The notes beneath the pieces were generated by a model that saw only the letters and a list, made by a program, of their open reading frames with translations, was not told the origin of the DNA and did not search any database. A stretch of DNA of 64,000 bases from Candidatus Limnocylindria bacterium (GTDB lineage Bacteria > Patescibacteriota > Saccharimonadia > Saccharimonadales > JAGQNK01): positions 73,931 to 137,930 of the forward strand of contig DATHJH010000018.1 of NCBI GenBank assembly GCA_035489815.1. Direction: 5' to 3'. Positions 2,446-63,058 of this stretch are shown here, in pieces (positions within the stretch are counted from its first letter, which is position 1; each line of letters opens with the position of its first letter). The position numbers were made by a program, and so were the translations under genes.

Positions 2446-4272
2446 CTATCCCTCTCCTGTTGTAGTGACGCGCAGGAGTTCCTCTATTGACGTCTGGCCG
2501 CGCAGGGCTTTGATGAAACCGTCCAGCTGCATAGTTACCATGCCTTCTTTGATGGCCTGGTTTTGTATGTCGGCGCTGGTGGCATTGGCCACAATAAGTT
2601 TTTGCACGTTTTCAGAGTTGGACAATACTTCGTAAATGCCGACCCGGCCTTTGTAGCCGGTGCGGCCGCAGGTTTCGCAGCCGTTTTCGTGGACCTTCCA
2701 GAGGCGGGTGATTTTAGCCGGCGTAGTACTAAGCTGGTCGGTCTTTTCAGACTTGCCCGGATTGTTACTACTGGTTTTGCCAATGCCGCCCTCCAGCGCC
2801 TGCTTTTCCAGGTCGTGGACGTACTGCATGACGGAACTGTTGTCTGTTTTGAATATCTCTGCCAGCTGCTTTAGTGTGGCCGCATCCGGCACGTAAGGGG
2901 TACGACAATCAACGCAGAGCCGGCGTACCAGGCGCTGGCCCACGACGGCCCGGACGGTGCTGGCAATCAGGAAAGGTTCTATCCCCATGTCCAGCAGGCG
3001 CGGCAGACAGGTAGCGGCGTTGTTAGTGTGCAGCGTGGCAAAGACCAGGTGCCCGGTCAGGGCGGCCTGCACTGCTAATCCGGCTGTTTCGACGTCGCGG
3101 ATCTCTCCGACCATGATGATATTCGGGTCCTGGCGCAGCAGGGCGCGCAGGCCGTTGGCAAAAGTCATACCGGCCTTGGGGTTAACCTGAGTTTGGTTGG
3201 CCCCCGGGATTTTGTATTCCACCGGATCCTCTACGGTAGAGATGTTGACACTTGGTTTGTTCAGCAAGCTCAGGGTGCTAAAGAGGCTGGTGGACTTGCC
3301 GGACCCGGTCGGACCGGTGACCAGGATCATGCCATGCGGCTGGGTAATGGCCTGGTTGATGTGCGCCAGGGCCGGACCCCAGTAGCCCAACTCTTCCAGT
3401 GTCAAGGCCTCGCTGGACTCGCTCAGGATGCGCATGACCACCTTTTCGCCTTCGCTGATGGGCAGGGTAGATACGCGCAGGGCATAGACGGCGCTGCCGA
3501 TCTGGATTTTGAACCGGCCGTCTTGCGGTACGCGACGTTCGTCCAGTTTGAGGTTGGACAGGATTTTGATGCGGGACACCAAGGCGCTGTGGACTTTCTT
3601 AGGCAGTTTGTTAGCTTCTTTCAAAATGCCGTCTACGCGGTAGCGAACACTGATGTAACTGTCCCGCGGTTCAATGTGGATGTCGCTGGCACCGCTGCGG
3701 ATGGCGTATTCGATCAGCAGGTTGACGGTCTGGGCAATGGGCGAATCTTCGGCCAGGTCGGCCTCGTCAACCTCCTCCTCTTTGCCTGCCTCTTCTTCGT
3801 CGCTGGCGGTCACCACCTGGGTCAGTTCGCTGCTGATGTTGCCGCGGTAGAGGTCCAGCGCAGTGCGAATATCGGTGGTGGTTGCCACATGGACTTTGAT
3901 GTTGTCCCCCAGTTGCTTCTGCAGGAAGTTGACGGCCTGGATGTCGTCCGGGTCCTCCATGGCCAACAGCTTGGAACCGTCCCCTTCGACGTCAAACAGT
4001 ACCACGCCGTACTGTTTGGCAATACGTTCGGGAATGAGTTTGAGGACCTCCCGGTTAATGCCCGTAGCGTCGACTTCTGTAAACGGAATGTCTATTTCTT
4101 TGGCGTAGAGTTTGGTCAGGTCCTTTTCAGATATGACCTCGTTTTTAATCACGATGTCCTGCAGGGGCTTTTTCTCGGCCTTTTCCTGGTCCTTCAATTC
4201 AGCCAGCTTCTCCGCAGAGACCTTTTTTGCGGCCACCAACAACTTTTCCACCAATGAATCAGAGATACGCAT
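2446..4272 (-). CDS. pilB: Type IV pilus assembly ATPase PilB (GspE family)
   Basis: 608 aa; N-terminal GSPII_E_N domain, Walker A GPTGSGKST, Asp/His boxes, tetracysteine CVDCRTP...CETCG. Confidence 0.92.
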   Translation of the reverse strand: MRISDSLVEKLLVAAKKVSAEKLAELKDQEKAEKKPLQDIVIKNEVISEKDLTKLYAKEIDIPFTEVDATGINREVLKLIPERIAKQYGVVLFDVEGDGSKLLAMEDPDDIQAVNFLQKQLGDNIKVHVATTTDIRTALDLYRGNISSELTQVVTASDEEEAGKEEEVDEADLAEDSPIAQTVNLLIEYAIRSGASDIHIEPRDSYISVRYRVDGILKEANKLPKKVHSALVSRIKILSNLKLDERRVPQDGRFKIQIGSAVYALRVSTLPISEGEKVVMRILSESSEALTLEELGYWGPALAHINQAITQPHGMILVTGPTGSGKSTSLFSTLSLLNKPSVNISTVEDPVEYKIPGANQTQVNPKAGMTFANGLRALLRQDPNIIMVGEIRDVETAGLAVQAALTGHLVFATLHTNNAATCLPRLLDMGIEPFLIASTVRAVVGQRLVRRLCVDCRTPYVPDAATLKQLAEIFKTDNSSVMQYVHDLEKQALEGGIGKTSSNNPGKSEKTDQLSTTPAKITRLWKVHENGCETCGRTGYKGRVGIYEVLSNSENVQKLIVANATSADIQNQAIKEGMVTMQLDGFIKALRGQTSIEELLRVTTTGEG

Positions 4273-11852: not shown

Positions 11853-13367
11853 ATGGAAATACTAGCCGTTTTGCTGGCAGTTGCTGGTATTGGCGTGGGG
11901 TTTGGCGCAAGCAACTATACCACCAGGAAAAAGATTGGTTCGGCCGAAGAAGCCGCCGAAAAAGAACTAAAAAGAGCTAAAAAAGAAGCCGAAAAGGCCC
12001 TGTCGGACGCCCGCGAAGAAGCCGCCCAGCTGGGCGACCAGGCCCGCAGGGACGAAACCACCCGCCGCAAGGAACTGAAGGAGATAGAACAGCGCCTCCT
12101 GGACCGCGAAGAGGCTCTGGACAAAAAGCTGGATCAAATAGACAAGCGTACAGAGACGCTCCGAAAAAGCGAGGCAGAAGTAGAAGACCTTAAAAATGAA
12201 ATCCGCGACATCCGCAAAAAACAGCAGGAAAAGCTGGAAAAAGTCGCCAAACTGAGCAAAGAGGATGCCGCCCAAAAGCTGATGCAGATGACAGAGAGGG
12301 ACATTCGGGGCGACCTGACCGGACTCGTCAGCAAATTGCAAAACGAAGCCCGGGAGCTGGGCGAGGAAAAGGCCGGCGCCATCATCGTCGAAGCCATGGA
12401 GCGCATGGCCAGCGAGGTCACGGCAGAACGCACGGTCACAGCGGTCAAGCTGGGTGACGAAGAAATGAAGGGCCGCATCATCGGCAAAGAGGGCCGCAAC
12501 ATCCAGGCCCTGCAACGCGCTACTGGTGTGGACATTATGGTGGATGACACCCCGGGCATGATTATCCTCAGCAGCTTTGACCCGGTTCGCCGGGAGGTTG
12601 CCCGGCAGGCCCTGGAAATGCTTATGAAAGACGGACGTATCCACCCCGGCCGTATAGAAGAGATAGTGGAGAAGGCCCAAAAGAACGTCCAGAAAGACGT
12701 CATGCGCGCCGGCGAAGATGCCGCCCGTGAGGTAGGCGTCATAGGTATCCCGCGTGAGGTTCTGCAGCTGTTGGGCGAGCTCAAGTTCCGAACTAGTTAT
12801 GGTCAGAATGTGCTGAAACACAGCACCGAAATGGCCCACATTGCCGGCATCATCGCCGAAGAAGTCGGCGCCAACGTAAAGATCGTCAAGTACGCTGCCC
12901 TGGTCCACGATCTTGGCAAAGCGCTGACCCACAAAATGGAGGGCAAGCACCACCACATTTCTGGTGAGATGCTGCGCAAATACGGCGCCCCGGAAGAGGT
13001 CGCCCTGGCCGCCGAACAGCACCATGACGATGTTGAAGCCACCACCACAGAGGCCATCATCGTCCGGGTGGTAGACGCCATCAGCGCCTCCCGTCCGGGT
13101 GCCCGCAACATCAGTGCAGAGAACTTTGCCGAACGCATGAAGGACCTGGAGAATGTGGCCAATGGTTTCCCCGGCATAGACAAGTCCTACGCCATCAGCG
13201 CCGGCCGCGAAGTCCGCGTGTTTGTAAAACCTGGCCAGATTGACGACCTGAGCGCCATCAAGCTGGCCCGGGACATAGCCACCAAAATAGAGTCCACCAT
13301 GCAGTACCCCGGAACGATCAAGGTCAACGTCATCCGCGAAACCCGTGCCATAGAATTTGCCAAATAA
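11853..13367 (+). CDS. rny: Ribonuclease Y
   Basis: N-terminal TM, coiled coil, KH domain (GRIIGKEGRNIQAL), HD domain (HDLGKA...); 504 aa. Confidence 0.93.
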   Translation: MEILAVLLAVAGIGVGFGASNYTTRKKIGSAEEAAEKELKRAKKEAEKALSDAREEAAQLGDQARRDETTRRKELKEIEQRLLDREEALDKKLDQIDKRTETLRKSEAEVEDLKNEIRDIRKKQQEKLEKVAKLSKEDAAQKLMQMTERDIRGDLTGLVSKLQNEARELGEEKAGAIIVEAMERMASEVTAERTVTAVKLGDEEMKGRIIGKEGRNIQALQRATGVDIMVDDTPGMIILSSFDPVRREVARQALEMLMKDGRIHPGRIEEIVEKAQKNVQKDVMRAGEDAAREVGVIGIPREVLQLLGELKFRTSYGQNVLKHSTEMAHIAGIIAEEVGANVKIVKYAALVHDLGKALTHKMEGKHHHISGEMLRKYGAPEEVALAAEQHHDDVEATTTEAIIVRVVDAISASRPGARNISAENFAERMKDLENVANGFPGIDKSYAISAGREVRVFVKPGQIDDLSAIKLARDIATKIESTMQYPGTIKVNVIRETRAIEFAK

Positions 13368-17224: not shown

Positions 17225-17431
17225 AATTATAACTCCTTATTCAGCCCATTGTATGTTTCTGAGATACAAAAGCAAGTACTGGGCGCAAAACCTCTGTTTT
17301 TTCTGGGGCTGTACTGCTTGTGGGGTGAAAGGGCAAAGCACGCCTAGGCGTCATGCTCCCCGGCTGTCTTTCAGACAGCCGGGTGCGCGCGATAGTTAAC
17401 GACCGAACCTTCGACTTACTCTAACCAATGA

Positions 17432-17463
17432 AAAAGACTGTCAGAAAAGACAGTCTTTTTCAT
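17432..17463. terminator. Terminator hairpin (AAAAAGACTGTC-AGAAAA-GACAGTCTTTTT) at the 3' end of tRNA-Pro
   Basis: 12-bp perfect stem with A/T runs, immediately after the tRNA CCA end on the minus strand. Confidence 0.55.
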
Positions 17464-17540
17464 TGGTCGGGGTGAAAGGACTCGAACCTTCGACCTCCGC
17501 GTCCCAAACGCGGCGCGCTAGCCAACTGCGCCACACCCCG
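17464..17540 (-). tRNA. tRNA-Pro (anticodon TGG), CCA encoded
   Basis: Manual cloverleaf: acceptor CGGGGTG/CACCCCG (C1-G72), anticodon loop TTTGGGA, T-loop TTCGAGT, 77 nt. Confidence 0.9.
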
Positions 17541-17660
17541 GCGTCGAGGTGTAATGGTCAGGTAGCTGAAGTGCTGGCAAAACAAGTTTGCCCATCACTT
17601 CTAGCTACCTGACCAAGCCCTCTCCTCTACAAATTCGAGAATCCTCTCTCGAATTTGGAC
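17541..17660. repeat. tRNA-upstream conserved structured element, copy 1: ~60-nt imperfect hairpin with core TGGCAAAACAAGTTTGCC, box ACCAAGCCCTCTCCTCTACAAA, small hairpin TTCGAGA-ATCC-TCTCGAA
   Basis: Same architecture directly 5' of tRNA-Pro(CGG), tRNA-His and tRNA-Arg(CCG); outer stems differ but stay complementary. Confidence 0.6.
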
Positions 17661-17689
17661 TGGCTTCATTTTGTTAAGGACGCTGTGCT

Positions 17690-17775
17690 TACTGGCAAAA
17701 CAAGTTTGCTCGGCACTTCTAATAACACACCAAGCCGCTCCTTATCAAAATTGCGGATCCTCTCGCGTTTTGGGC
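17690..17775. repeat. Degenerate tandem second copy of the tRNA-upstream element (TGGCAAAACAAGTTTGCT...CACACCAAGCCGCTCCTTATCAAAATTGCGGATCCTCTCGCGTTTTGGG)
   Basis: Shares the core and pyrimidine box with copy 1 but the outer stem is eroded. Confidence 0.45.
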
Positions 17776-18101
17776 CTACGTGTCGAGTCTATTTTAACAG
17801 ATTAGGCCCAGGGATCAAAGCTTTGTGGTTTTCTTAAAGAGGATCACCAACGTAGGTCACGGCAAGGTAGTTATTTGTTGCACTGCGAAGGGTGCCACAG
17901 TTGCTAGATCAAGTTAGAGGGTGCGGGTGCTTGCTTGAACCTTCGACTCTATATCAATGCCTGCTATACTGCTAAGGTTTTTAACCCCGCTAGACCAAAG
18001 TTTGGCGGGCCTTGTACGGTTCTTCCTTCTGGGCCCCGCGAACACTTCGCCGAGCAGAAGTTCTGTGCAGGGATTTTTGTTTTACCAAAATCAGGAGGAC
18101 T

Positions 18102-23999: not shown

Positions 24000-25154
24000 G
24001 TGGCTGTAGCGACAACCCATCCCAGCGCAGTCGCTGACGCGGGCTCTAAGCTTACGTTTGCTCAGCATGTGTACGAGCTGCGCAAGCGCCTGATGTGGTC
24101 GCTATTGTTTGTGGGGATTGGTGCCGGCATAGGCTATGCCCTGAATGACGCCATCCTGACCATTTTGCAGCATCCTTTGCATGAAAAGCTTTACTACACG
24201 ACGCCTACCGGGGCCTTCAGTTTCATTATAAAAGTCTGTTGTGTGTTTGGGTTTGTGGTGTCGCTGCCGGTGGTGGTGTATCAGGTTTTTGGCTTTTTTG
24301 GACCGCTCCTGCCGGTCCGGACCCGGCGGTCATTTGTGCTGTATAGTTTTCTGTCGGTATTTCTGGCATTGATGGGGGTCGCTTTTGCGTACTTTGTCAG
24401 CCTGCCGGCCTCGCTGCGTTTCCTGGTAAACTTCGGCAGCGGCAGCGGTAACATCCAGGCGCTCATCACCGCGGATGAGTATTTCAACTTTGTGCTAACC
24501 TACATTGCCGGTTTTGCGGCACTTTTCCAGTTGCCGCTGGTTGTAACTTTCATAAACAAAATCAAGCCGCTAAAACCAACGCAGCTGCTGGGCTATACGC
24601 GCTATGTGATCCTGGGCAGTTTTATTGTGTCGGCAATCATAACACCTACGCCTGACCCTTTGAACCAGGCGCTTATGGCCGGTCCGATCATCCTGCTGTA
24701 CTTTTTCTCTGTCGGCGTGGTAGCCGTGGCCAATCGGGCCCGGCGCCGTAAGAACTCAGCCAAAACCGGTCTGAGTCAGAGAAAAAGATTTTGGATGCGT
24801 TCTAAGGCGGAGCCAGTCGTGCCCGAACTGTCAGCAGCCAGCATAGAAGCAGTACTCGCCGACGAAGATTCCCTGCGTCCGTTCAGTCCAACAGCACCAA
24901 CAGTACCAGCATTACCAGTGGCGCCGGTACCTACTCAACCGGTGGGCCTTGAGATCCGCCCGCTCGGCCGGGTGAGTGTCCAGGGGCCTGCTCCCCGGCG
25001 CATGGTCTCTGACGTCGTGCGTCCGTCGGGACGCAATCAACCCCTGGCTCCCTTTGCCCGGTCACAGCCGGCAAGTCCAGTGGTGCCACGGACTGCTCCC
25101 CGTCCCATGCGCATGAGAGTAATATCTGATTTTATTCCGGCTACGGAGCAGTAG
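24000..25154 (+). CDS. tatC: Twin-arginine translocase TatC with a ~130-aa Pro/Ala/Val-rich C-terminal extension
   Basis: Six TM segments with TatC motifs in the first ~250 aa; then a low-complexity P/A/V/R-rich tail; GTG start. Confidence 0.85.
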   Translation: MAVATTHPSAVADAGSKLTFAQHVYELRKRLMWSLLFVGIGAGIGYALNDAILTILQHPLHEKLYYTTPTGAFSFIIKVCCVFGFVVSLPVVVYQVFGFFGPLLPVRTRRSFVLYSFLSVFLALMGVAFAYFVSLPASLRFLVNFGSGSGNIQALITADEYFNFVLTYIAGFAALFQLPLVVTFINKIKPLKPTQLLGYTRYVILGSFIVSAIITPTPDPLNQALMAGPIILLYFFSVGVVAVANRARRRKNSAKTGLSQRKRFWMRSKAEPVVPELSAASIEAVLADEDSLRPFSPTAPTVPALPVAPVPTQPVGLEIRPLGRVSVQGPAPRRMVSDVVRPSGRNQPLAPFARSQPASPVVPRTAPRPMRMRVISDFIPATEQ

Positions 25155-26371: not shown

Positions 26372-26447
26372 TGGTCGGAGTGGGCGGACTTGAACCGCCG
26401 ACCTCAGCGTCCCGAACGCTGCGCGCTACCAACTGCGCCACACTCCG
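26372..26447 (-). tRNA. tRNA-Pro (anticodon CGG), CCA encoded
   Basis: Manual cloverleaf: acceptor CGGAGTG/CACTCCG, anticodon loop TTCGGGA, T-loop TTCAAGT, 76 nt. Confidence 0.9.
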
Positions 26448-26607
26448 GAGTCGACGTGTGATGGTGGGGTGACCAATTTGCCGGCAAAACAAGTTTGCCC
26501 GGCAAATGCGCTCACCCCACCAAGCCCTCTCCTCTCAAAATCGCGAATCCTCTCGCGTTTTTGGCTTTTATCTGTCCAAACAGCCGGCAAGCGGCTTGGT
26601 TTGGGGT
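26448..26607. repeat. tRNA-upstream conserved structured element, copy 2 (long hairpin GGTGGGGTGACCAATTTGCCGGCAAAACAAGTTTGCCCGGCAAATGCGCTCACCCCACC, box CAAGCCCTCTCCTCTCAAAA, hairpin TCGCGA-ATCC-TCTCGCG-TTTTT) plus distal hairpin GTCCAAACAGCCGGCAAGCGGCTTGGTTTGGGG
   Basis: Directly abuts the 5' end of tRNA-Pro(CGG); same architecture as copies at 17541, 29996 and 61337. Confidence 0.6.
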
Positions 26608-26680
26608 TATAAACCAAGTGCAATAACAAGGATAGTATAGTTCTTCAGGGACGGAAGGTAAATGCTGTTACAATGGACTC

Positions 26681-27334: not shown

Positions 27335-27443
27335 ACATAAACCGACAAAACGTACCACCAAATGGTCCGGCCGGACCATTTGGTGGTACGTTTTTAGGGG
27401 TGGGTCAGGGGGGAAGGTTCGGGATGGGTGCTAAGGTGTTAGA

Positions 27444-29916: not shown

Positions 29917-29995
29917 TGGGGTGCCTGATGGGATTCGAACCCACGATCTCCGGAACCACAACCCGGCGCATTAGGCCAACTATGCTACAGGCACC
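29917..29995 (-). tRNA. tRNA-His (anticodon GTG) with genome-encoded G-1 and CCA
   Basis: Manual cloverleaf: G-1 + GTGCCTG/CAGGCAC, discriminator C73, D-stem GCAT/ATGC, anticodon loop TTGTGGT. Confidence 0.9.
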
Positions 29996-30110
29996 TCGTC
30001 GGCGTGTAATGGTTGGGTAGCCAATTTGTCGGCAAAACAAGTTTGCCCGACAAAAAAGGCTACCCAACCAAGCCGCCTCCTCTACAAAATCGCGAATCCT
30101 CTCGCAATTT
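29996..30110. repeat. tRNA-upstream conserved structured element, copy 3 (hairpin GGTTGGGTAGCCAATTTGTCGGCAAAACAAGTTTGCCCGACAAAAAAGGCTACCCAACC, box AAGCCGCCTCCTCTACAAAA, hairpin TCGCGAATCCTCTCGCA-TTTT)
   Basis: Directly abuts the 5' end of tRNA-His; stems covary relative to copies 1 and 2. Confidence 0.6.
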
Positions 30111-30159
30111 TGGCTGGAAACTGTCAAGCAGCAAAGCTGCTTGACTTGAAAAACTGAGT

Positions 30160-30285
30160 GGCTACATTTTGTTAAGAGTGACTTTGGCAATCTTACCAAG
30201 TCTTTTTTGCAAATCCGAGACTGACGCTCGCAATTTGGTTTTTCAAGTCGTCCAAACAGCCGGCAAGCGGCTTGTTTGGGATTTT
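30160..30285. repeat. Degenerate second copy of the tRNA-upstream element plus distal hairpin GTCCAAACAGCCGGCAAGCGGCTTGTTTGGG
   Basis: CATTTTGTTAAG and the distal hairpin are shared with 17668 and 26570 respectively. Confidence 0.45.
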
Positions 30286-30372
30286 AATTTCTGGCTACAG
30301 TGGCTACGGCCAGAAACAGGGGTGATTATACTTGTTTTTTGGGAATTTGGCTAGTCTAATGATCTTTAATAC

Positions 30373-32023: not shown

Positions 32024-32090
32024 AGCCCATCCAAGATCTTTTCTCCTTGCCGTGGTCGGGGTCAGAGGAAAAGATTTTGGATGGGCTCTT
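32021..32090. repeat. MITE-like element, 70 bp: TIRs TAGAGCCCATCCAAGATCTTTTC / GAAAAGATTTTGGATGGGCTCTTA around a 26-nt core
   Basis: Arms near-identical to the 11391 palindrome and the 57001-57182 element; core matches the outer core of the 57-kb copy. Confidence 0.55.
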
Positions 32091-44150: not shown

Positions 44151-46400
44151 ATGAAGCGCATTAAATTTAATGGTCTTTTGGCGATGACCCTGTTAACACT
44201 GGTTGCCCTGGGCAGTTCACTGGTCCGCCAGGCGACTGTGACTGCGGCTGTATTGCCAAATGCACCTACCGGACAGGTGTCTTTTACCTTTGACGACGGG
44301 TTTTCTACCTTTGCCACTAAGGCGGCTCCAGCTTTGGCGGCCCATAACCAGAAGGGCACATTGTACCTGTCAACCGGCTGTGTTGACGGCACAGGAACCT
44401 GCCGCCAGAACGTTGACCCGGCCGCAGAGTACCTGACCTGGGACCAGGTGCAGACACTTAAGAATACTTATGGGTGGGAAATTGGCGCCCACACTGCCAA
44501 CCACCCGCTTATGACCGAAATTACGCCAGCTCAGCTGGAGGCAGAATTTACTGCCAGCAATCAAGCTTTTGCGGCGCATGGTTTGGCACCGACAGCCTTT
44601 GCCACACCTTATGGCGACTACAACAGTTCAGTAGTAGCAGCCATTGCCAGGAACTACACCTCACACCGTGGTTTTCATGACATCGGCTACAATGCCTGGC
44701 CAGCCAATCGCTACCTCTTGCAGGTACAGCAGGTTCAGGCCGGCGTGAGTGTTGCCACCGTCAAGGGCTATATTGATCAAGCCAAGGCTAACAACACCTG
44801 GTTGGTGCTGGTTTTCCACGATATACAGGACAACCCTAGCAGTGACCCTGAAGACTATCAGTTTAGTACTGCTAACCTGGAAGCTGTTGCAGCCTATGCC
44901 CAGGCCCAGAATATCAAAAATGTCAACGTGACCGAAGGTCTGACCACTGGCCAGAGTAACCTGCTGCCTAACAGTGGCTTTGCTAACGGCCTCGGTAGTG
45001 GCTGGAAGACCAACACTCCCGCTAACGTCGTAGCCAACACCGCCGGCAACGGCGCCGTGGCTTCACCGGCTAACTCTGTTGCTATGACTGCCGCCGCCGA
45101 TCAGAACGTCTACCTGTTCTCGCCGACTATCAATATAGACCCCACCCGCCGCTACTGGCTCTCTGCCTACGTAAATACAGTGACTCGTACGAGCGGCGAA
45201 GTAGCCTTCTACGTAGACGAATACGACACCGCCGGCAACTGGATCAGCGGCCAGTATAAGCAAGCTCTGACGGTGCCGGAGTTCAAAGACGCTTCGTTTA
45301 TCTATCAGCCTACCTCTGCGCAGGTTAAAAAGGCCAGCGTGCAAGTAATTGTCACCGCTGGCTCGGGTATCACGACTTACATTGACAACGTCGAATGGTA
45401 TGGCCTGGACGCTGCTGCCGACCCAGATCCTAACCCCACGCCTACGAACCTTAACCTGCTCCCTAATAGTGGCTTCAATAACGGCGTAGGTGATGGATGG
45501 ACAACTGACAATGCTGCAGCTATAGCCAGCGACACCGCCAATCACGGCAGCCCGGCCAGCCCCTCGCACTCTGTCAAGCTGACGGCACCTGCATCTGGCA
45601 ATGCCCACTTGTTTGCGCCAAAGGTAAATGTACAGTCCGGCACGACATATATTGTTAAAGCCTTCCTGAACATCCTGACCCTGAACACCGGCGAAGTAGC
45701 CTTCTACGTAGACGAATACGACACCGCCGGCAACTGGATCAGCGGCCAGTACTTGTTTGCAAAGCGCAATGAAGGTGAAGAGCAGGTAGAGTTTACCTAC
45801 ACTCCTACCTCAAGTAACGTAGCCCGGGCCCAGTTGCAGGTCATCCTGACCGGCAACTCCGGCATCAACGGCTACCTGGATGAGGTTCAGTTCCTGGCAC
45901 CTCAGGGCACGCCTCCTCCGGTTGTTGATCCACCCGCGCCCACACCAACCACGACAGTTCTAGAGACTGCTTTTGCTAACGGCATTGCCGATGGCTGGCA
46001 CACCGATACTGCGACTGCCATTACCGCAGACGCAGCTGGTAACGGCGCTGCCGACGAACCACAGCACTCTGTCAAGTTGGTATCTGGTACTGCTAACGCT
46101 CAGCTGTTTTCACCAAACGTGAACGTGAGCGTAGGCACTACCTACACCCTTGAGAGCTATCTGAATATTGTGCAGTTGGCAAGCGGCGAAGTAGCCTTCT
46201 ACGTAGACGAATACGACACCGCCGGCAACTGGATCAGCGGCCAGTACTTGTACGCCCGCCGTACCGCTGGTACGGTAAACGTCAGCTTCAATTACACGCC
46301 TACTTCGGCTGCAGTTGCTCAGGCGAGCCTGCAGGTCATCCTGACAGGCAACTCTGGCATTACTGCCTACCTGGACAGTATCAAGTGGTTAAGCGCCTAA
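44151..46400 (+). CDS. Secreted polysaccharide deacetylase (CE4/NodB domain) followed by three tandem ~160-aa carbohydrate-binding-module-like repeats
   Basis: Signal peptide; CE4 motifs FTFDDGF, LTWDQV, GWEIGAHTANHP; three repeats each containing GEVAFYVDEYDTAGNWISGQY, encoded by 62-nt identical tracts at 45195, 45700 and 46185. Confidence 0.85.
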   Translation: MKRIKFNGLLAMTLLTLVALGSSLVRQATVTAAVLPNAPTGQVSFTFDDGFSTFATKAAPALAAHNQKGTLYLSTGCVDGTGTCRQNVDPAAEYLTWDQVQTLKNTYGWEIGAHTANHPLMTEITPAQLEAEFTASNQAFAAHGLAPTAFATPYGDYNSSVVAAIARNYTSHRGFHDIGYNAWPANRYLLQVQQVQAGVSVATVKGYIDQAKANNTWLVLVFHDIQDNPSSDPEDYQFSTANLEAVAAYAQAQNIKNVNVTEGLTTGQSNLLPNSGFANGLGSGWKTNTPANVVANTAGNGAVASPANSVAMTAAADQNVYLFSPTINIDPTRRYWLSAYVNTVTRTSGEVAFYVDEYDTAGNWISGQYKQALTVPEFKDASFIYQPTSAQVKKASVQVIVTAGSGITTYIDNVEWYGLDAAADPDPNPTPTNLNLLPNSGFNNGVGDGWTTDNAAAIASDTANHGSPASPSHSVKLTAPASGNAHLFAPKVNVQSGTTYIVKAFLNILTLNTGEVAFYVDEYDTAGNWISGQYLFAKRNEGEEQVEFTYTPTSSNVARAQLQVILTGNSGINGYLDEVQFLAPQGTPPPVVDPPAPTPTTTVLETAFANGIADGWHTDTATAITADAAGNGAADEPQHSVKLVSGTANAQLFSPNVNVSVGTTYTLESYLNIVQLASGEVAFYVDEYDTAGNWISGQYLYARRTAGTVNVSFNYTPTSAAVAQASLQVILTGNSGITAYLDSIKWLSA

Positions 46401-57000: not shown

Positions 57001-57182
57001 TAGAACCTATCCAGGATCTTTTCACCACGGCCGAGAGCAGTTTTCGGGTGTGAGCCGGCTGTTTTTTGATTTGAAAGGTACCTGTAAGAAGGTACCTTTC
57101 GGAGCGATAGTCTATCAGAAGGCAGGTGGATTGCGTCTGAAAGGTGGTCGGAGTCAGAGGAAGAGATCCTGGATGGGTTCTT
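57001..57182. repeat. MITE-like element, 182 bp: TIRs TAGAACCTATCCAGGATCTTTTC / AAGAGATCCTGGATGGGTTCTTA with a structured core that includes the palindrome AAAGGTACCT-GTAAGAA-GGTACCTTT
   Basis: The TIRs match the 11391 palindrome and the 32021-32090 element; the outer core (CACCACGG...GGTGGTCGGAGTCAGAGG) is shared with the 32-kb copy. Confidence 0.55.
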
Positions 57183-61262: not shown

Positions 61263-61336
61263 AAGTGATGCACGAGTTATTGTACCAGATATCACCCCTG
61301 TTTGTTATAATTACTCTGACTGCAGCCAGTCCCGTT

Positions 61337-61464
61337 GACCAAACCAAGCAGCTTTAGCTGCTGTTTGGGCGACGGAAGAGGAGAGGGCTTGGTTGGGTAG
61401 CTAGAAGTGATGGGCAAACTTGTTTTGCCATCACTTCAGCTGCCGAACCATCACACCTCGACGC
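61337..61464. repeat. tRNA-upstream conserved structured element, copy 4, on the + strand directly 5' of tRNA-Arg(CCG)
   Basis: Reads as the reverse complement of copies 1-3 in window coordinates but has the same orientation relative to its tRNA. Confidence 0.6.
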
Positions 61465-61541
61465 GCACCCGTAGCTCAGCTGGATAGAGCGTTGGTTTCC
61501 GGTACCAAAGGTCGTAGGTTCAAATCCTATCGGGTGTACCA
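61465..61541 (+). tRNA. tRNA-Arg (anticodon CCG), CCA encoded
   Basis: Manual cloverleaf: acceptor GCACCCG/CGGGTGT, anticodon loop TTCCGGT, T-loop TTCAAAT, 77 nt. Confidence 0.9.
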
Positions 61542-61645: not shown

Positions 61646-62032
61646 ATGAAACAACTTGAACAGACATACATCATTCATGCACCGGTTGAAAAAGTATGGC
61701 AAGCCCTCACAGACGCTGCCACGGCAGAACAATGGGGCGCAGGTCCGGCAAAAATTGATGCGACCGTGGGTGGTGAATATAGTTTTTGGGATGGAGATAT
61801 TCATGGTGTATTTACGAAACTTGAGCCAAATACCAGAATTGAGCAAGACTGGTACGGCCATGACAATCCAGCTTGGAAATATAACGTAGTATTTGAGTTT
61901 GAAGGCGATGATAAGGTCACAAATGTTAAGTTGACATACTCCGGCGATATTCTTGATGAACAAAAAGACATTACTGACTGGCAAGATTACTATTTTGACC
62001 CAATTAAGAAACTGCTGGAGCGGCCAGAATAG
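61646..62032 (+). CDS. SRPBCC-superfamily protein (AHSA1/polyketide-cyclase-like)
   Basis: MKQLEQTYIIHAPVEKVWQALTD...WGAG pattern typical of the SRPBCC/Aha1 domain; 128 aa from ATG 61646. Confidence 0.7.
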   Translation: MKQLEQTYIIHAPVEKVWQALTDAATAEQWGAGPAKIDATVGGEYSFWDGDIHGVFTKLEPNTRIEQDWYGHDNPAWKYNVVFEFEGDDKVTNVKLTYSGDILDEQKDITDWQDYYFDPIKKLLERPE

Positions 62033-62149
62033 TTCTAACCTGTGCCAAAGCGCTGTACCATTTCAACGCAACAGATTACATTAGTTCGAGAATTTAAACT
62101 CATTTCAAAGTCTTATCTGTTATTCAGTTCGAATCTCGATAGGTGTCAA

Positions 62150-62917
62150 TTATTTTGACTGAACGGATTCCAATACCGCTTCTGCGTCAAAAGGTGGCCC
62201 CCAAACTGTTGCAGCCTTACCTGAATTAATGACTGTTGTCACATCTTTGTGACTTGATATCATGGTCAAGTTTTCGCCTAGCATTTGCTGATAGAGTGTC
62301 CAGCTTGGATTAAAGAGTATTGGACGTTTAGCTAGAACAAACAATGAGCTGTCTCCAACTGTATCACCCATGTGTACATCAAGATGGCTCGTATCGCCAT
62401 TTCGAGCATCTGCGTATTCAGTTGCTTTATCAATACTATGAGCCTCGTCCGTGAACAGTCCTTCACGAGCTACATAGGTACTTCCCATTAATGCCACAAA
62501 ACCCAAATCTTCAGTAAATGGACCCATCAGCCACTCTGGCATAAGTGAAATTGAAACTACATTATGAGTTGCGTGCAGTTTTTCTATAATTGCTGTGGTT
62601 ATATTCCAACGCCTATGTCGTTGCTGATTTGCAACAATACGAGCTGCTTCATTTAGTTGACTTACCGATTTTCCAGGTACCTGTTCAATAAAGAAACGAA
62701 CGAGTTGACCTAAATGGGCAGTATATTTTTGTTCGGTATTGTCGTTTTTCCATTCTTGCTTGGCTGCGGTTATTTCAAAGGGCATTGGATCAAATACAGA
62801 TTGTTGTGATAACCAATCTGTATAGGCTTCGAGTACAGTCATTTTGAAAACAGTGCCGTCCAAATCAAAAGTTGCATCGGGCAAATCTGGATTAATACCG
62901 CCATTAAGCTCAATCAT
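62150..62917 (-). CDS. Hypothetical protein, possibly HAD-superfamily hydrolase
   Basis: N-terminal FDLDGTVF resembles HAD motif I (DxDGT); otherwise unassigned; 255 aa. Confidence 0.35.
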   Translation of the reverse strand: MIELNGGINPDLPDATFDLDGTVFKMTVLEAYTDWLSQQSVFDPMPFEITAAKQEWKNDNTEQKYTAHLGQLVRFFIEQVPGKSVSQLNEAARIVANQQRHRRWNITTAIIEKLHATHNVVSISLMPEWLMGPFTEDLGFVALMGSTYVAREGLFTDEAHSIDKATEYADARNGDTSHLDVHMGDTVGDSSLFVLAKRPILFNPSWTLYQQMLGENLTMISSHKDVTTVINSGKAATVWGPPFDAEAVLESVQSK

Positions 62918-63058
62918 TCTCTAAATATAGCAAAGAAGCCTCCTCTAACTATAAGCACAACTGAGAAATAAAGTTCTAACCTGTGCCAAAGCGCTGTACC
63001 ATTTCGCTTATGTTTAAACCTATCAGATTTAGGTTTTTTTGTTTGATATGATGTACTT

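Follow-up and report, generated by a model that had tools for sequence, protein, structure and literature searches.

We analysed a 64,000-nucleotide stretch of contig DATHJH010000018.1 (hereafter the window) in which a conserved hairpin element lies directly in front of tRNA genes. ARAGORN finds seven tRNA genes in the window, and for four of them, tRNA-Pro(TGG), Pro(CGG), His and Arg(CCG), the element sits immediately upstream of the gene and on the same strand. Each of the four full copies is about 85 nucleotides long and lies 2-3 nucleotides 5' of its tRNA. Arg(TCG), Arg(TCT) and Gly(TCC) of the window are without it, as judged by a covariance model and a check of tRNA context; the first-pass annotation of this DNA had reported the absence from the two Arg genes, and Gly(TCC) can now be added. 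A copy consists of a purine box (GAAGAGGAG), a long hairpin that we call H2, a GAC tail and a short linker. A second hairpin upstream of H2, called H1, keeps the position of its stem base and bears an apex of type Y (loop GAGGAU) or type X (CCAAACCAAGC...GUUUGG). The parts of this module and the genes that follow it are, in window coordinates:

17464..17540, minus strand: tRNA-Pro(TGG), downstream of copy 1 (ARAGORN and Rfam tRNA).
17541..17628, minus strand: copy 1, with purine box, H2, GAC and the 2-nucleotide linker GC (model match 17543-17637, 108 bits).
17630..17658, minus strand: H1 of copy 1, type Y, a covarying stem with loop GAGGAU.
17667..17684, minus strand: boxA-like GCGTCCTTAACAAAATG in the Pro(TGG) leader (pattern match).
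17685..17774, minus strand: half-module of the Pro(TGG) leader, with H1-Y', purine box, 5' arm, apical hairpin AGCAAACTTGTTTTGCC (17694-17710) and truncated 3' arm.
17791..17818, minus strand: predicted promoter of the Pro(TGG) unit, TTGATC-16-TAAAAT, TG-extended.
26372..26447, minus strand: tRNA-Pro(CGG) (ARAGORN and Rfam tRNA).
26448..26535, minus strand: copy 2, with purine box, H2, GAC and linker TC (model match, 95.7 bits).
26536..26563, minus strand: H1 of copy 2, type Y, terminator-like when the plus strand is scanned.
26574..26604, minus strand: type X hairpin of copy 2, CCAAACCAAGCCGCTTGCCGGCTGTTTGG (repeat family D13).
26634..26662, minus strand: predicted promoter of the Pro(CGG) unit, TTTACC-17-TATACT.
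29917..29994, minus strand: tRNA-His (ARAGORN and Rfam tRNA).
29995..30083, minus strand: copy 3, with purine box, H2 (P1 = GGCG/CGCC), GAC and linker GAG (model match, 102 bits).
30085..30112, minus strand: H1 of copy 3, type Y.
30165..30177, minus strand: boxA-like CTTAACAAAATG in the His leader (pattern match).
30183..30285, minus strand: decayed half-module of the His leader, including a type X hairpin at 30250-30280 (D13).
30315..30353, minus strand: predicted promoter of the His unit, TAGCCA-17-TATAAT, followed by the discriminator CACCCCTGTT.
61306..61311, plus strand: -10 box TGTTATAAT of the Arg(CCG) unit, read from the sequence, with a like arrangement in the related locus L141.
61332..61375, plus strand: H1 of copy 4, type X, with outer stem CCGUUG/CGACGG and inner CCAAAC..GUUUGG.
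61376..61464, plus strand: copy 4, with purine box, H2, GAC and linker GC (model match, 101 bits).
61465..61541, plus strand: tRNA-Arg(CCG) (ARAGORN and Rfam tRNA).

The full copies share an exact 17-mer, GGCAAACTTGTTTTGCC, at 17576-17592(-), 26483-26499(-), 30031-30047(-) and 61413-61429(+), and it recurs with one mismatch at 17694-17710(-). These five matches compare with 0.2 expected in the window, and none of 100 shuffles reached five. All four copies also have the purine box and CCATYACACSYCGAC, the folding z-scores against shuffles run from -5.0 to -8.5, and each time ARAGORN places the tRNA +1 2-3 nucleotides past the terminal ..GAC. The last G of the copy 3 linker may be the encoded G-1 of tRNA-His, in which case the His spacer would measure 2 nucleotides and not 3. 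In copy 1, H2 is made up of P1, the internal loop GCUU/AUUACA, P2 and the apical GGCAAA-CUUGU-UUUGCC.

The motifs quoted in the first-pass annotation all lie where it placed them. Its outer stems do stay paired through compensating changes, but the sequence that it gave for the Arg copy, GGTTCGGCAGC, is the complement of the 3' arm and not the 5' arm; the true 5' arm, GGTTGGGTAGC, pairs with one mismatch, one G.U and one bulge. The partial copies that it called degenerate are present but are actually half-modules, made of H1, purine box, 5' arm and apical hairpin. The one in the Pro(TGG) leader gives a weak covariance-model match (17673-17753, 22 bits); the other, at 30160-30285, is too decayed for the model, which at E<=1 returns nothing for 30183..30285, and it is traced by its X hairpin (30250-30280) and boxA-like sequence (30165-30177) only. 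What had been described as a distal hairpin is likewise conserved, but it is just one of the two alternative apexes of H1.

Some 40 further copies came from loci of relatives (metagenome-assembled genomes, or MAGs, and metagenomes), which are designated by L-numbers. A scan of a genome collection with the 17-mer gave mostly chance matches, along with at least nine real copies from MAGs that bear the label Candidatus Saccharibacteria or 'bacterium'. A more specific pattern gave 29 metagenome loci, of which 26 hold full copies, two are chance matches and one, L118, holds the 3' half only; no copy was found in the viral contigs searched. The covariance model, R1, was run on 304 kb of Saccharibacteria sequence and produced 40 matches of at least 59 bits, together with three weaker, partial or atypical ones (28-35 bits). 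All matches of at least 28 bits adjoin a tRNA gene or a gene for transfer-messenger RNA (tmRNA), and the remainder of the list is made up of decayed half-copies, weak echoes of strong copies on the reverse strand and a single match, L129, that is probably due to chance. Such a search across genomes had been proposed in the first-pass annotation, and the copies beyond the window proved both tRNA- or tmRNA-associated and covarying.

We aligned 34 distinct copies nearly without gaps over 95 nucleotides (a shorter variant, L141, was found afterwards). From base to tip, RNAalifold folds H2 into a closing G-C pair, P1 (4 pairs), an asymmetric internal loop (5' GCUU, 3' AUYACA), P2 (11 pairs), a small 3/2 internal loop, a further helix that is interrupted twice by single bases and the invariant apical GGCAAA-CUUGU-UUUGCC. 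Across this alignment the cells are 92.9% paired, and compensatory double changes occur at 23 of the 30 pairs. The covariation score is 0.52 compared to 0.20 after shuffling (0 of 500 shuffles reach 0.52), and slid registers score at most 0.13. Variation is concentrated in the stems, and the internal loops and apical hairpin hardly vary. Between the Pro(TGG) orthologues of the window and L121, 21 of 60 paired positions differ as against 2 of 25 unpaired ones, with nine compensated pairs and one broken. H1 of type Y shows double changes in 9 of its 11 pairs and is 97.7% paired. The selection on RNA structure that the first-pass annotation had proposed is borne out by this strong covariation among copies from many genomes.

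The pairing also reveals a strand. Among paired positions, G.U or U.G combinations number 55 and A.C or C.A combinations 17 (p = 8e-6), and the tRNA-sense strand gives the more stable fold in 29 of 35 copies. What selection acts on is therefore the structure of a single strand with the polarity of the tRNA, most simply an RNA. Of the roles suggested in the first-pass annotation, a structured tRNA leader is the one that gains from this wobble-pair asymmetry, and promoter-like sites lie upstream of the element. The stem variants fall into a few types that are common to different tRNA loci and unlike between orthologous loci, which indicates exchange between copies.

The position of the module relative to the mature RNA is nearly fixed. 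We found 36 of the R1 matches upstream of a tRNA gene in sense, and the tRNAs behind the module include Pro, His, Arg, Leu, Val, Lys, Ser, Tyr, Met, Gly, Ala and Glu. The spacer from ..GAC to tRNA +1 is exactly 2 nucleotides in 29 of these 36, and at L019 the next gene after the copy is a tmRNA (Rfam, 68.5 bits). Module-bearing organisms encode a type A RNase P RNA, whose own gene has no leader, its 5' end lying about 7 nucleotides past its own TATAAT. The module therefore appears to accompany those RNAs whose 5' ends are made by RNase P. RNase P depends on four or more single-stranded leader nucleotides, and sequestor hairpins block cleavage (PMC7897497). In the module the covarying P1 stops at -6 and GACGN (-5 to -1) is unpaired, leaving positions -1 to -4 unsequestered; only an invariant G-C pair, which offers no covariation to judge by, plus a possible tandem G.A would extend the helix to -3. 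The helix thus seems to stand about as close to the tRNA as it can without blocking cleavage. The invariant A at -4 agrees with the preference reported for the Bacillus RNase P protein.

In order, a complete unit comprises a sigma-70-type promoter with a C-rich discriminator, H1, the purine box, H2, GACGN and the tRNA, and some leaders hold both H1 apex types. Farther upstream, most units carry (TG)nTATAAT followed by CCCCTCTGTT, and in the window a consensus scan gave three of the four copies a promoter-like site, each upstream and on the tRNA strand. Module-less tRNAs have a -10 plus CCCCTGTT motif 11-25 nucleotides ahead of the gene, as seen for Gly(TCC) of the window, His of L136 and Gly of L099. 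They keep the -10 plus CCCCTCTGTT motif at 11-25 nucleotides; the module is thus inserted between the promoter and the tRNA. This optional insert measures about 110-130 nucleotides or, in a long form, 250-330 nucleotides. The long form occurs at Pro(TGG) and His of the window and at L124, L132, L136 and L145, and it opens with the half-copy of H1, purine box, 5' arm and apical hairpin. The first-pass annotation had also considered the element itself as a promoter, but its sole internal hexamer pair, TTGCCR-18-CATYAC in the 3' arm, lacks the obligatory final T of a -10 box, and a better conserved promoter lies upstream.

Long leaders also contain a sequence resembling boxA. In the window Pro(TGG) leader the boxA-like GCGUCCUUAACAAAAUG lies 13 nucleotides past the apical hairpin of the half-copy. 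The boxA-like GCGTCCTTAACAAAATG shares 9 of 10 positions with TCTTTAACAA, the core of the E. coli rrn boxA, and L136 carries TCTTTAACAA. The gammaproteobacterial boxA consensus is GYTCTTTAANA (PMC5725501). Against the gammaproteobacterial consensus the boxA-like sequences match at 9-10 of 12 positions, the E. coli rrn boxA being TGCTCTTTAACAA. Our boxA search pattern has two matches in the window, both in leaders, compared to an estimated 0.015 or so by chance.

The genes beside the window copies are unrelated housekeeping genes, and no transposase, recombinase or other mobile-element gene was found next to them. The open reading frame at 11853-13367 (+) encodes RNase Y, which suggests an RNase Y type of RNA decay and bears on how a leader would be degraded. 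A 25-nucleotide copy of the 3' part of tRNA-Pro(TGG) lies at 17404-17428, 79 nucleotides past the gene, and resembles an integration remnant at a tRNA.

Strand-specific structural selection, an upstream promoter motif, a fixed geometry to the mature 5' end and, among the copies found, restriction to tRNA and tmRNA genes are established, and we class the element as a conserved cis-encoded leader RNA motif, one that fits no catalogued family. We favor, at a probability of roughly 55%, the reading that H2 is the core hairpin of a modular 5' leader RNA that is transcribed ahead of RNase P substrates, many tRNAs and the tmRNA, in a subclade of Saccharibacteria and whose loops bind protein. Transcription would start at the sigma-70-type promoter (-10 TATAAT plus the C-rich discriminator CCCCTCTGTT), about 125-330 nucleotides upstream of the tRNA, and the nascent leader would fold into H1 (loop GAGGAU or CCAAAC..GUUUGG apex), the purine box and the rod H2 of near-constant length. 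The basal helix of H2 would end 5 nucleotides (G-A-C-G-N) before tRNA +1, about the minimum single-stranded stretch for RNase P, which would then separate the leader from the tRNA or tmRNA. In this scheme the stems would matter as structure only. Sequence-specific contacts, most likely with protein, would be made by the invariant apical hairpin, both internal loops, the purine box and the GAC tail. The likeliest role is a boxB-like one, in which the apical hairpin, beside boxA, would load an elongation or processing factor on stable-RNA transcripts, because the same hairpin lies 13 nucleotides before the boxA-like sequence in long leaders. H2 may also keep the long untranslated leader compact while setting RNase P access, and a fully structured leader could avoid Rho and nucleases.

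Several observations weigh against this reading. We infer the transcription start, and cleavage and release by RNase P, from sequence. Part of what reads as covariation may be exchange between copies and not independent substitution. The boxA-like sequence occurs in some leaders only, and short leaders are without it. The module is dispensable for any given tRNA, its presence differing between genomes at orthologous genes: Arg(TCG) lacks it in the window and has it in L120 and L141, Arg(TCT) lacks it in the window and has it in L099, and His has it in the window and lacks it in L099 and L136. Loci anchored on glyA in L149, L150 and L152 (GlyA 84-85% identical) hold 17 tRNA genes and no copy; a further such locus, L151 (GlyA 86% identical), has one. 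Remnants are also seen, with only ..CACGCTTCGACGtg before the tRNA at L149-His, H1 alone followed by ACGA and the tRNA at L026-Ser, and a decayed 5' arm at L141.

Two copies, in L122 and L032, lie antisense to tRNA-Thr, their GACG end adjoining the CCA end of the gene, and a role as leader only leaves them unexplained. Both keep the 17-mer and share a divergent internal loop (CGUGGAG / UGGAACG), with P2 stems that are unrelated and compensating. Their own orientation folds better, at -40.4 versus -29.2 kcal/mol in L122 and -49.5 versus -34.6 kcal/mol in L032. On the module strand, a -10-like TGATAATGT can be read from the sequence upstream of the L122 copy; no promoter is visible upstream of the L032 copy, which sits within a Thr-Gly unit, and no consistent gene lies downstream of either. 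These two copies keep alive the readings that invoke a trans-acting RNA, a DNA-level site or a mobile repeat.

The alternative that survives best, though we consider it unlikely, is that the module is the gene of an abundant, stable, trans-acting small RNA on strong tRNA promoters, whose 3' end, ..GACGN-OH, RNase P would make. H2 would then shield that end from exonucleases, and the loops, the purine box and the GAGGAU loop would bind a protein or another RNA. Such an RNA would account for the fixed 2-nucleotide tail, for single-stranded motifs that stay invariant as the stems drift, for many copies per genome and for the two copies that lack a sense tRNA and are still structured in their own orientation; functional tRNA-spacer RNAs such as 3'ETS-leuZ provide a precedent (review PMC8166272). 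However, targets in the window are not enriched: five of five perfect matches to the apical-loop complement are the copies themselves, and one-mismatch matches number 6 compared to 5.1 by chance. Neither locus-by-locus loss and regain nor absence from close relatives would be expected of such a gene, and the antisense L032 copy has no visible promoter.

We regard as improbable a selfish or mobile nature of the module. It would then be a palindromic repeat (MITE, REP or PATE-like, or one propagated by gene conversion) that lands between tRNA promoter and gene and is tolerated there, its hairpin being kept for the mobility machinery. Variable presence at orthologous loci and patchiness among relatives fit this idea, as do near-identical stem variants at different tRNAs, partial or decayed copies (the half-modules, the L118 3' half, the degenerate L141 5' arm) and the two inverted copies; the strand-specific G.T bias would also suit recognition of single-stranded DNA as in IS200/IS605. 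But comparison of filled and empty orthologous sites shows neither target-site duplication nor terminal inverted repeats, the left edge is not conserved (0 to about 30 nucleotides after CTGTT), and no transposase or recombinase gene adjoins the window copies. All copies found adjoin a tRNA or tmRNA gene, mostly with single-nucleotide precision, despite differing tRNA sequences, and the loops are invariant across distant genomes as stems compensate at orthologous loci. Judging by its near-monotonic cumulative GC skew, the window appears to lie in one replichore, and it has copies on both strands, which argues against a mechanism based on lagging-strand single-stranded DNA.

A DNA-level function, with the invariant quasi-palindrome GGCAAA-N5-TTTGCC, central in a long palindrome, as operator for a regulator of stable-RNA genes or as a cruciform, seems very improbable. 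Whichever way it faces the neighbouring tRNA, the 17-mer is conserved, and its half-sites are perfectly symmetric, but the asymmetric 5-nucleotide centre CTTGT is invariant, the 55:17 ratio of G.U to A.C is strand-specific, the stems are free to change if pairing is kept, and the site would lie about 100 nucleotides downstream of the promoter. Scarcely credible is the divergently transcribed small RNA of the first-pass annotation, ending at the small hairpin plus T-run: of the window copies one is terminator-like (26542-26557) and three are not, the T-run is replaced by a CCGAUU/AAUCGG stem base in related copies, the opposite strand gives the less stable fold in 29 of 35 copies and would carry A.C mismatches, and the start would fall inside the tRNA gene.

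The element shares single traits with several known systems (nut-type leaders, tRNA-spacer RNAs, RNase III hairpins and palindromic repeats) and departs from each in others. The Rfam comparison proposed in the first-pass annotation matched no family to the element: with Rfam 15 only tRNAs reach the gathering threshold in the window, and a search of 17400-17900 at E<=10 yields nothing but hairpin-like miRNA models below threshold. Full-text literature searches found no description of such a leader, and a 2026 paper on tRNA introns in Patescibacteria is silent on leaders. The rrn and lambda nut-type antitermination leaders (boxB, boxA, boxC; NusB-NusE) share with the module an untranslated leader of stable-RNA genes, a promoter with a C-rich discriminator and, in long module leaders, a conserved hairpin followed at 13 nucleotides by the boxA-like GCGUCCUUAACAAAAUG, as boxB precedes boxA in rrn operons. 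Unlike them, the module sits on single tRNA or tmRNA genes and not on rRNA operons, its short leaders are without boxA, and its hairpin is the tip of a rod of about 85 nucleotides beside an RNase P site.

Spacers of tRNA precursors (3'ETS-leuZ, the tyrT rtT RNA and the stable RNAs 1/2 of the phage T4 tRNA cluster) resemble the module in its predicted co-transcription with tRNA and putative release by tRNA-processing nucleases, whereas the module is 5'-sided, highly structured and one sequence family at many tRNA genes. P2-P3, with 25 predicted pairs and two small interruptions, has the helix length of RNase III substrates, whose double-stranded stretches reach some 20 bp or more and are often broken by internal loops. 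RNase III hairpins such as rRNA processing stems and phage T7 R1.1-type sites likewise have more than 25 bp of interrupted double-stranded RNA, asymmetric internal loops and a place in stable-RNA precursors, but the module is a local hairpin and not a leader-trailer duplex, and it has an invariant apical loop. A synthetic RNase P riboswitch (PMC7897497) also uses a hairpin just upstream of the tRNA to set the single-stranded leader that RNase P sees. The module, by contrast, is natural and, counting the covarying P1 alone, leaves 5 nucleotides free, which would probably let cleavage proceed. Palindromic repeats (REP/BIME, Correia, RUP and IS200/IS605-derived PATEs) are similarly multi-copy, hairpin-forming and variably present, with homogenised variants, whereas the module, in the loci searched, is tied strictly to tRNA and tmRNA boundaries, has near-constant length, invariant loops and compensating stems, and is without target-site duplication, terminal inverted repeats or, next to the window copies, a partner transposase.

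Other candidates were tried and rejected. A T-box leader is marked by a stem I specifier codon that matches a tRNA, a T-box sequence and a place upstream of aminoacyl-tRNA synthetase or amino-acid genes. The element has no Rfam hit to it, keeps its internal loop constant across tRNA identities and lies upstream of tRNAs themselves; a specifier-like codon in the internal loop fails on the same invariance with tRNA identity. A mini-open reading frame (Shine-Dalgarno-like GAGGAG, then TTG-NNN-NGG-TAG) has start and stop codons that are not conserved (L026, L019, L123), and pairing of the GAGGAU loop or a 5' CCCCUCU with P1 shows no covariation as P1 changes. Resemblances to K-turns, Y RNA, the hairpin ribozyme and retrons have no Rfam support and lack the defining motifs, and an IS200/IS605-like insertion 3' of CTGTT is contradicted by the unconserved left end. 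Pairing of the apical hairpin with RNase P RNA would use an 11-nucleotide match in the universally conserved J11/12, with p of about 0.04 before correction for six queries. In the type A RNase P RNA at L124 283-655 (-), J11/12 GUGAAACGAGU is complementary to the apical ACUUGUUUUGC through 8 Watson-Crick and 3 G.U pairs, probably by chance. The identical 17-mer GGCAAACTTGTTTTGCC also occurs in another structured context, in unrelated repeats of Lentisphaeria MAGs (L015, L022, L039, L081, L100, L103 and L117, mostly at contig ends) and of a Sedimentisphaerales MAG (L042, L060 and L107). These repeats have no Rfam match, and the shared 17-mer may be a coincidence or a common stable CUUG-type hairpin.

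The proteins of the window have identical counterparts in GenBank, the HTE22xxx entries of a MAG that carries the label 'Candidatus Limnocylindria bacterium' (Chloroflexota). The serine hydroxymethyltransferase (GlyA) of the window shows 82-84% identity to proteins with the names Saccharibacteria, Saccharimonadales or Patescibacteria, and every relative that has the element belongs to Saccharibacteria or Patescibacteria. On the strength of these closest named GlyA proteins and of the relatives, we take the window to be, probably, a Saccharibacteria contig that was mis-binned or mislabelled in GenBank. Group I introns have been reported in Patescibacteria tRNA genes (PMC13011429). Insertions like these split several tRNA genes downstream of the element, and ARAGORN misplaces or misses such genes (L124 ~2765-3041, L127 ~1534-1969, L138 ~1-130, L123 367-546, L149 4260-4500 and L150 1-300). 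In a close relative, at L151 11068-12632, a large serine recombinase gene directly adjoins tRNA-Arg(TCG), which suggests that an element integrated at the tRNA that in the window is divergently paired with Arg(CCG).

The window holds further repeats. A second family, GGTCGGGGTCAGAGGAAAAGATTTTGGATGGGCTCT, of about 36-40 nucleotides and without an Rfam match, has four copies, all on the plus strand (24768-24803, 27397-27432, 32054-32089 and 57146-57181). A perfect 34-nucleotide direct repeat (62031-62064 and 62972-63005) flanks a HAD-family open reading frame at 62150-62917(-) and could be an att-like or cassette boundary. Three 495-nucleotide tandem repeats at 45144-46375, within a 749-residue 'polysaccharide deacetylase family' open reading frame (44151-46400), indicate a repeated protein domain.

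Bacterial tRNA 5' leaders are usually viewed as short, unconserved and throw-away, and here one elaborate, covarying leader is common to a whole set of tRNA genes and the tmRNA gene. The element is a candidate family for Rfam and for the annotation of Saccharibacteria genomes, and its boxA-like partner suggests that Nus-type antitermination may reach tRNA genes. If the leader controls transcription, processing or stability, it would give a lineage-wide handle on the tRNA supply of an ultra-small, host-dependent bacterium; if the cleaved leader acts alone, it would be a new class of small RNA made by RNase P. We also put forward, as a possible but doubtful proposal, that the element defines a new RNA class, a protein-binding hairpin in the precursors of RNase P substrates that spreads by recognising tRNA gene boundaries and that gates or times tRNA processing or else becomes an abundant small RNA released by RNase P. 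Were gating or timing true, it would amount to global post-transcriptional control of tRNA supply in an epibiont with a reduced genome.

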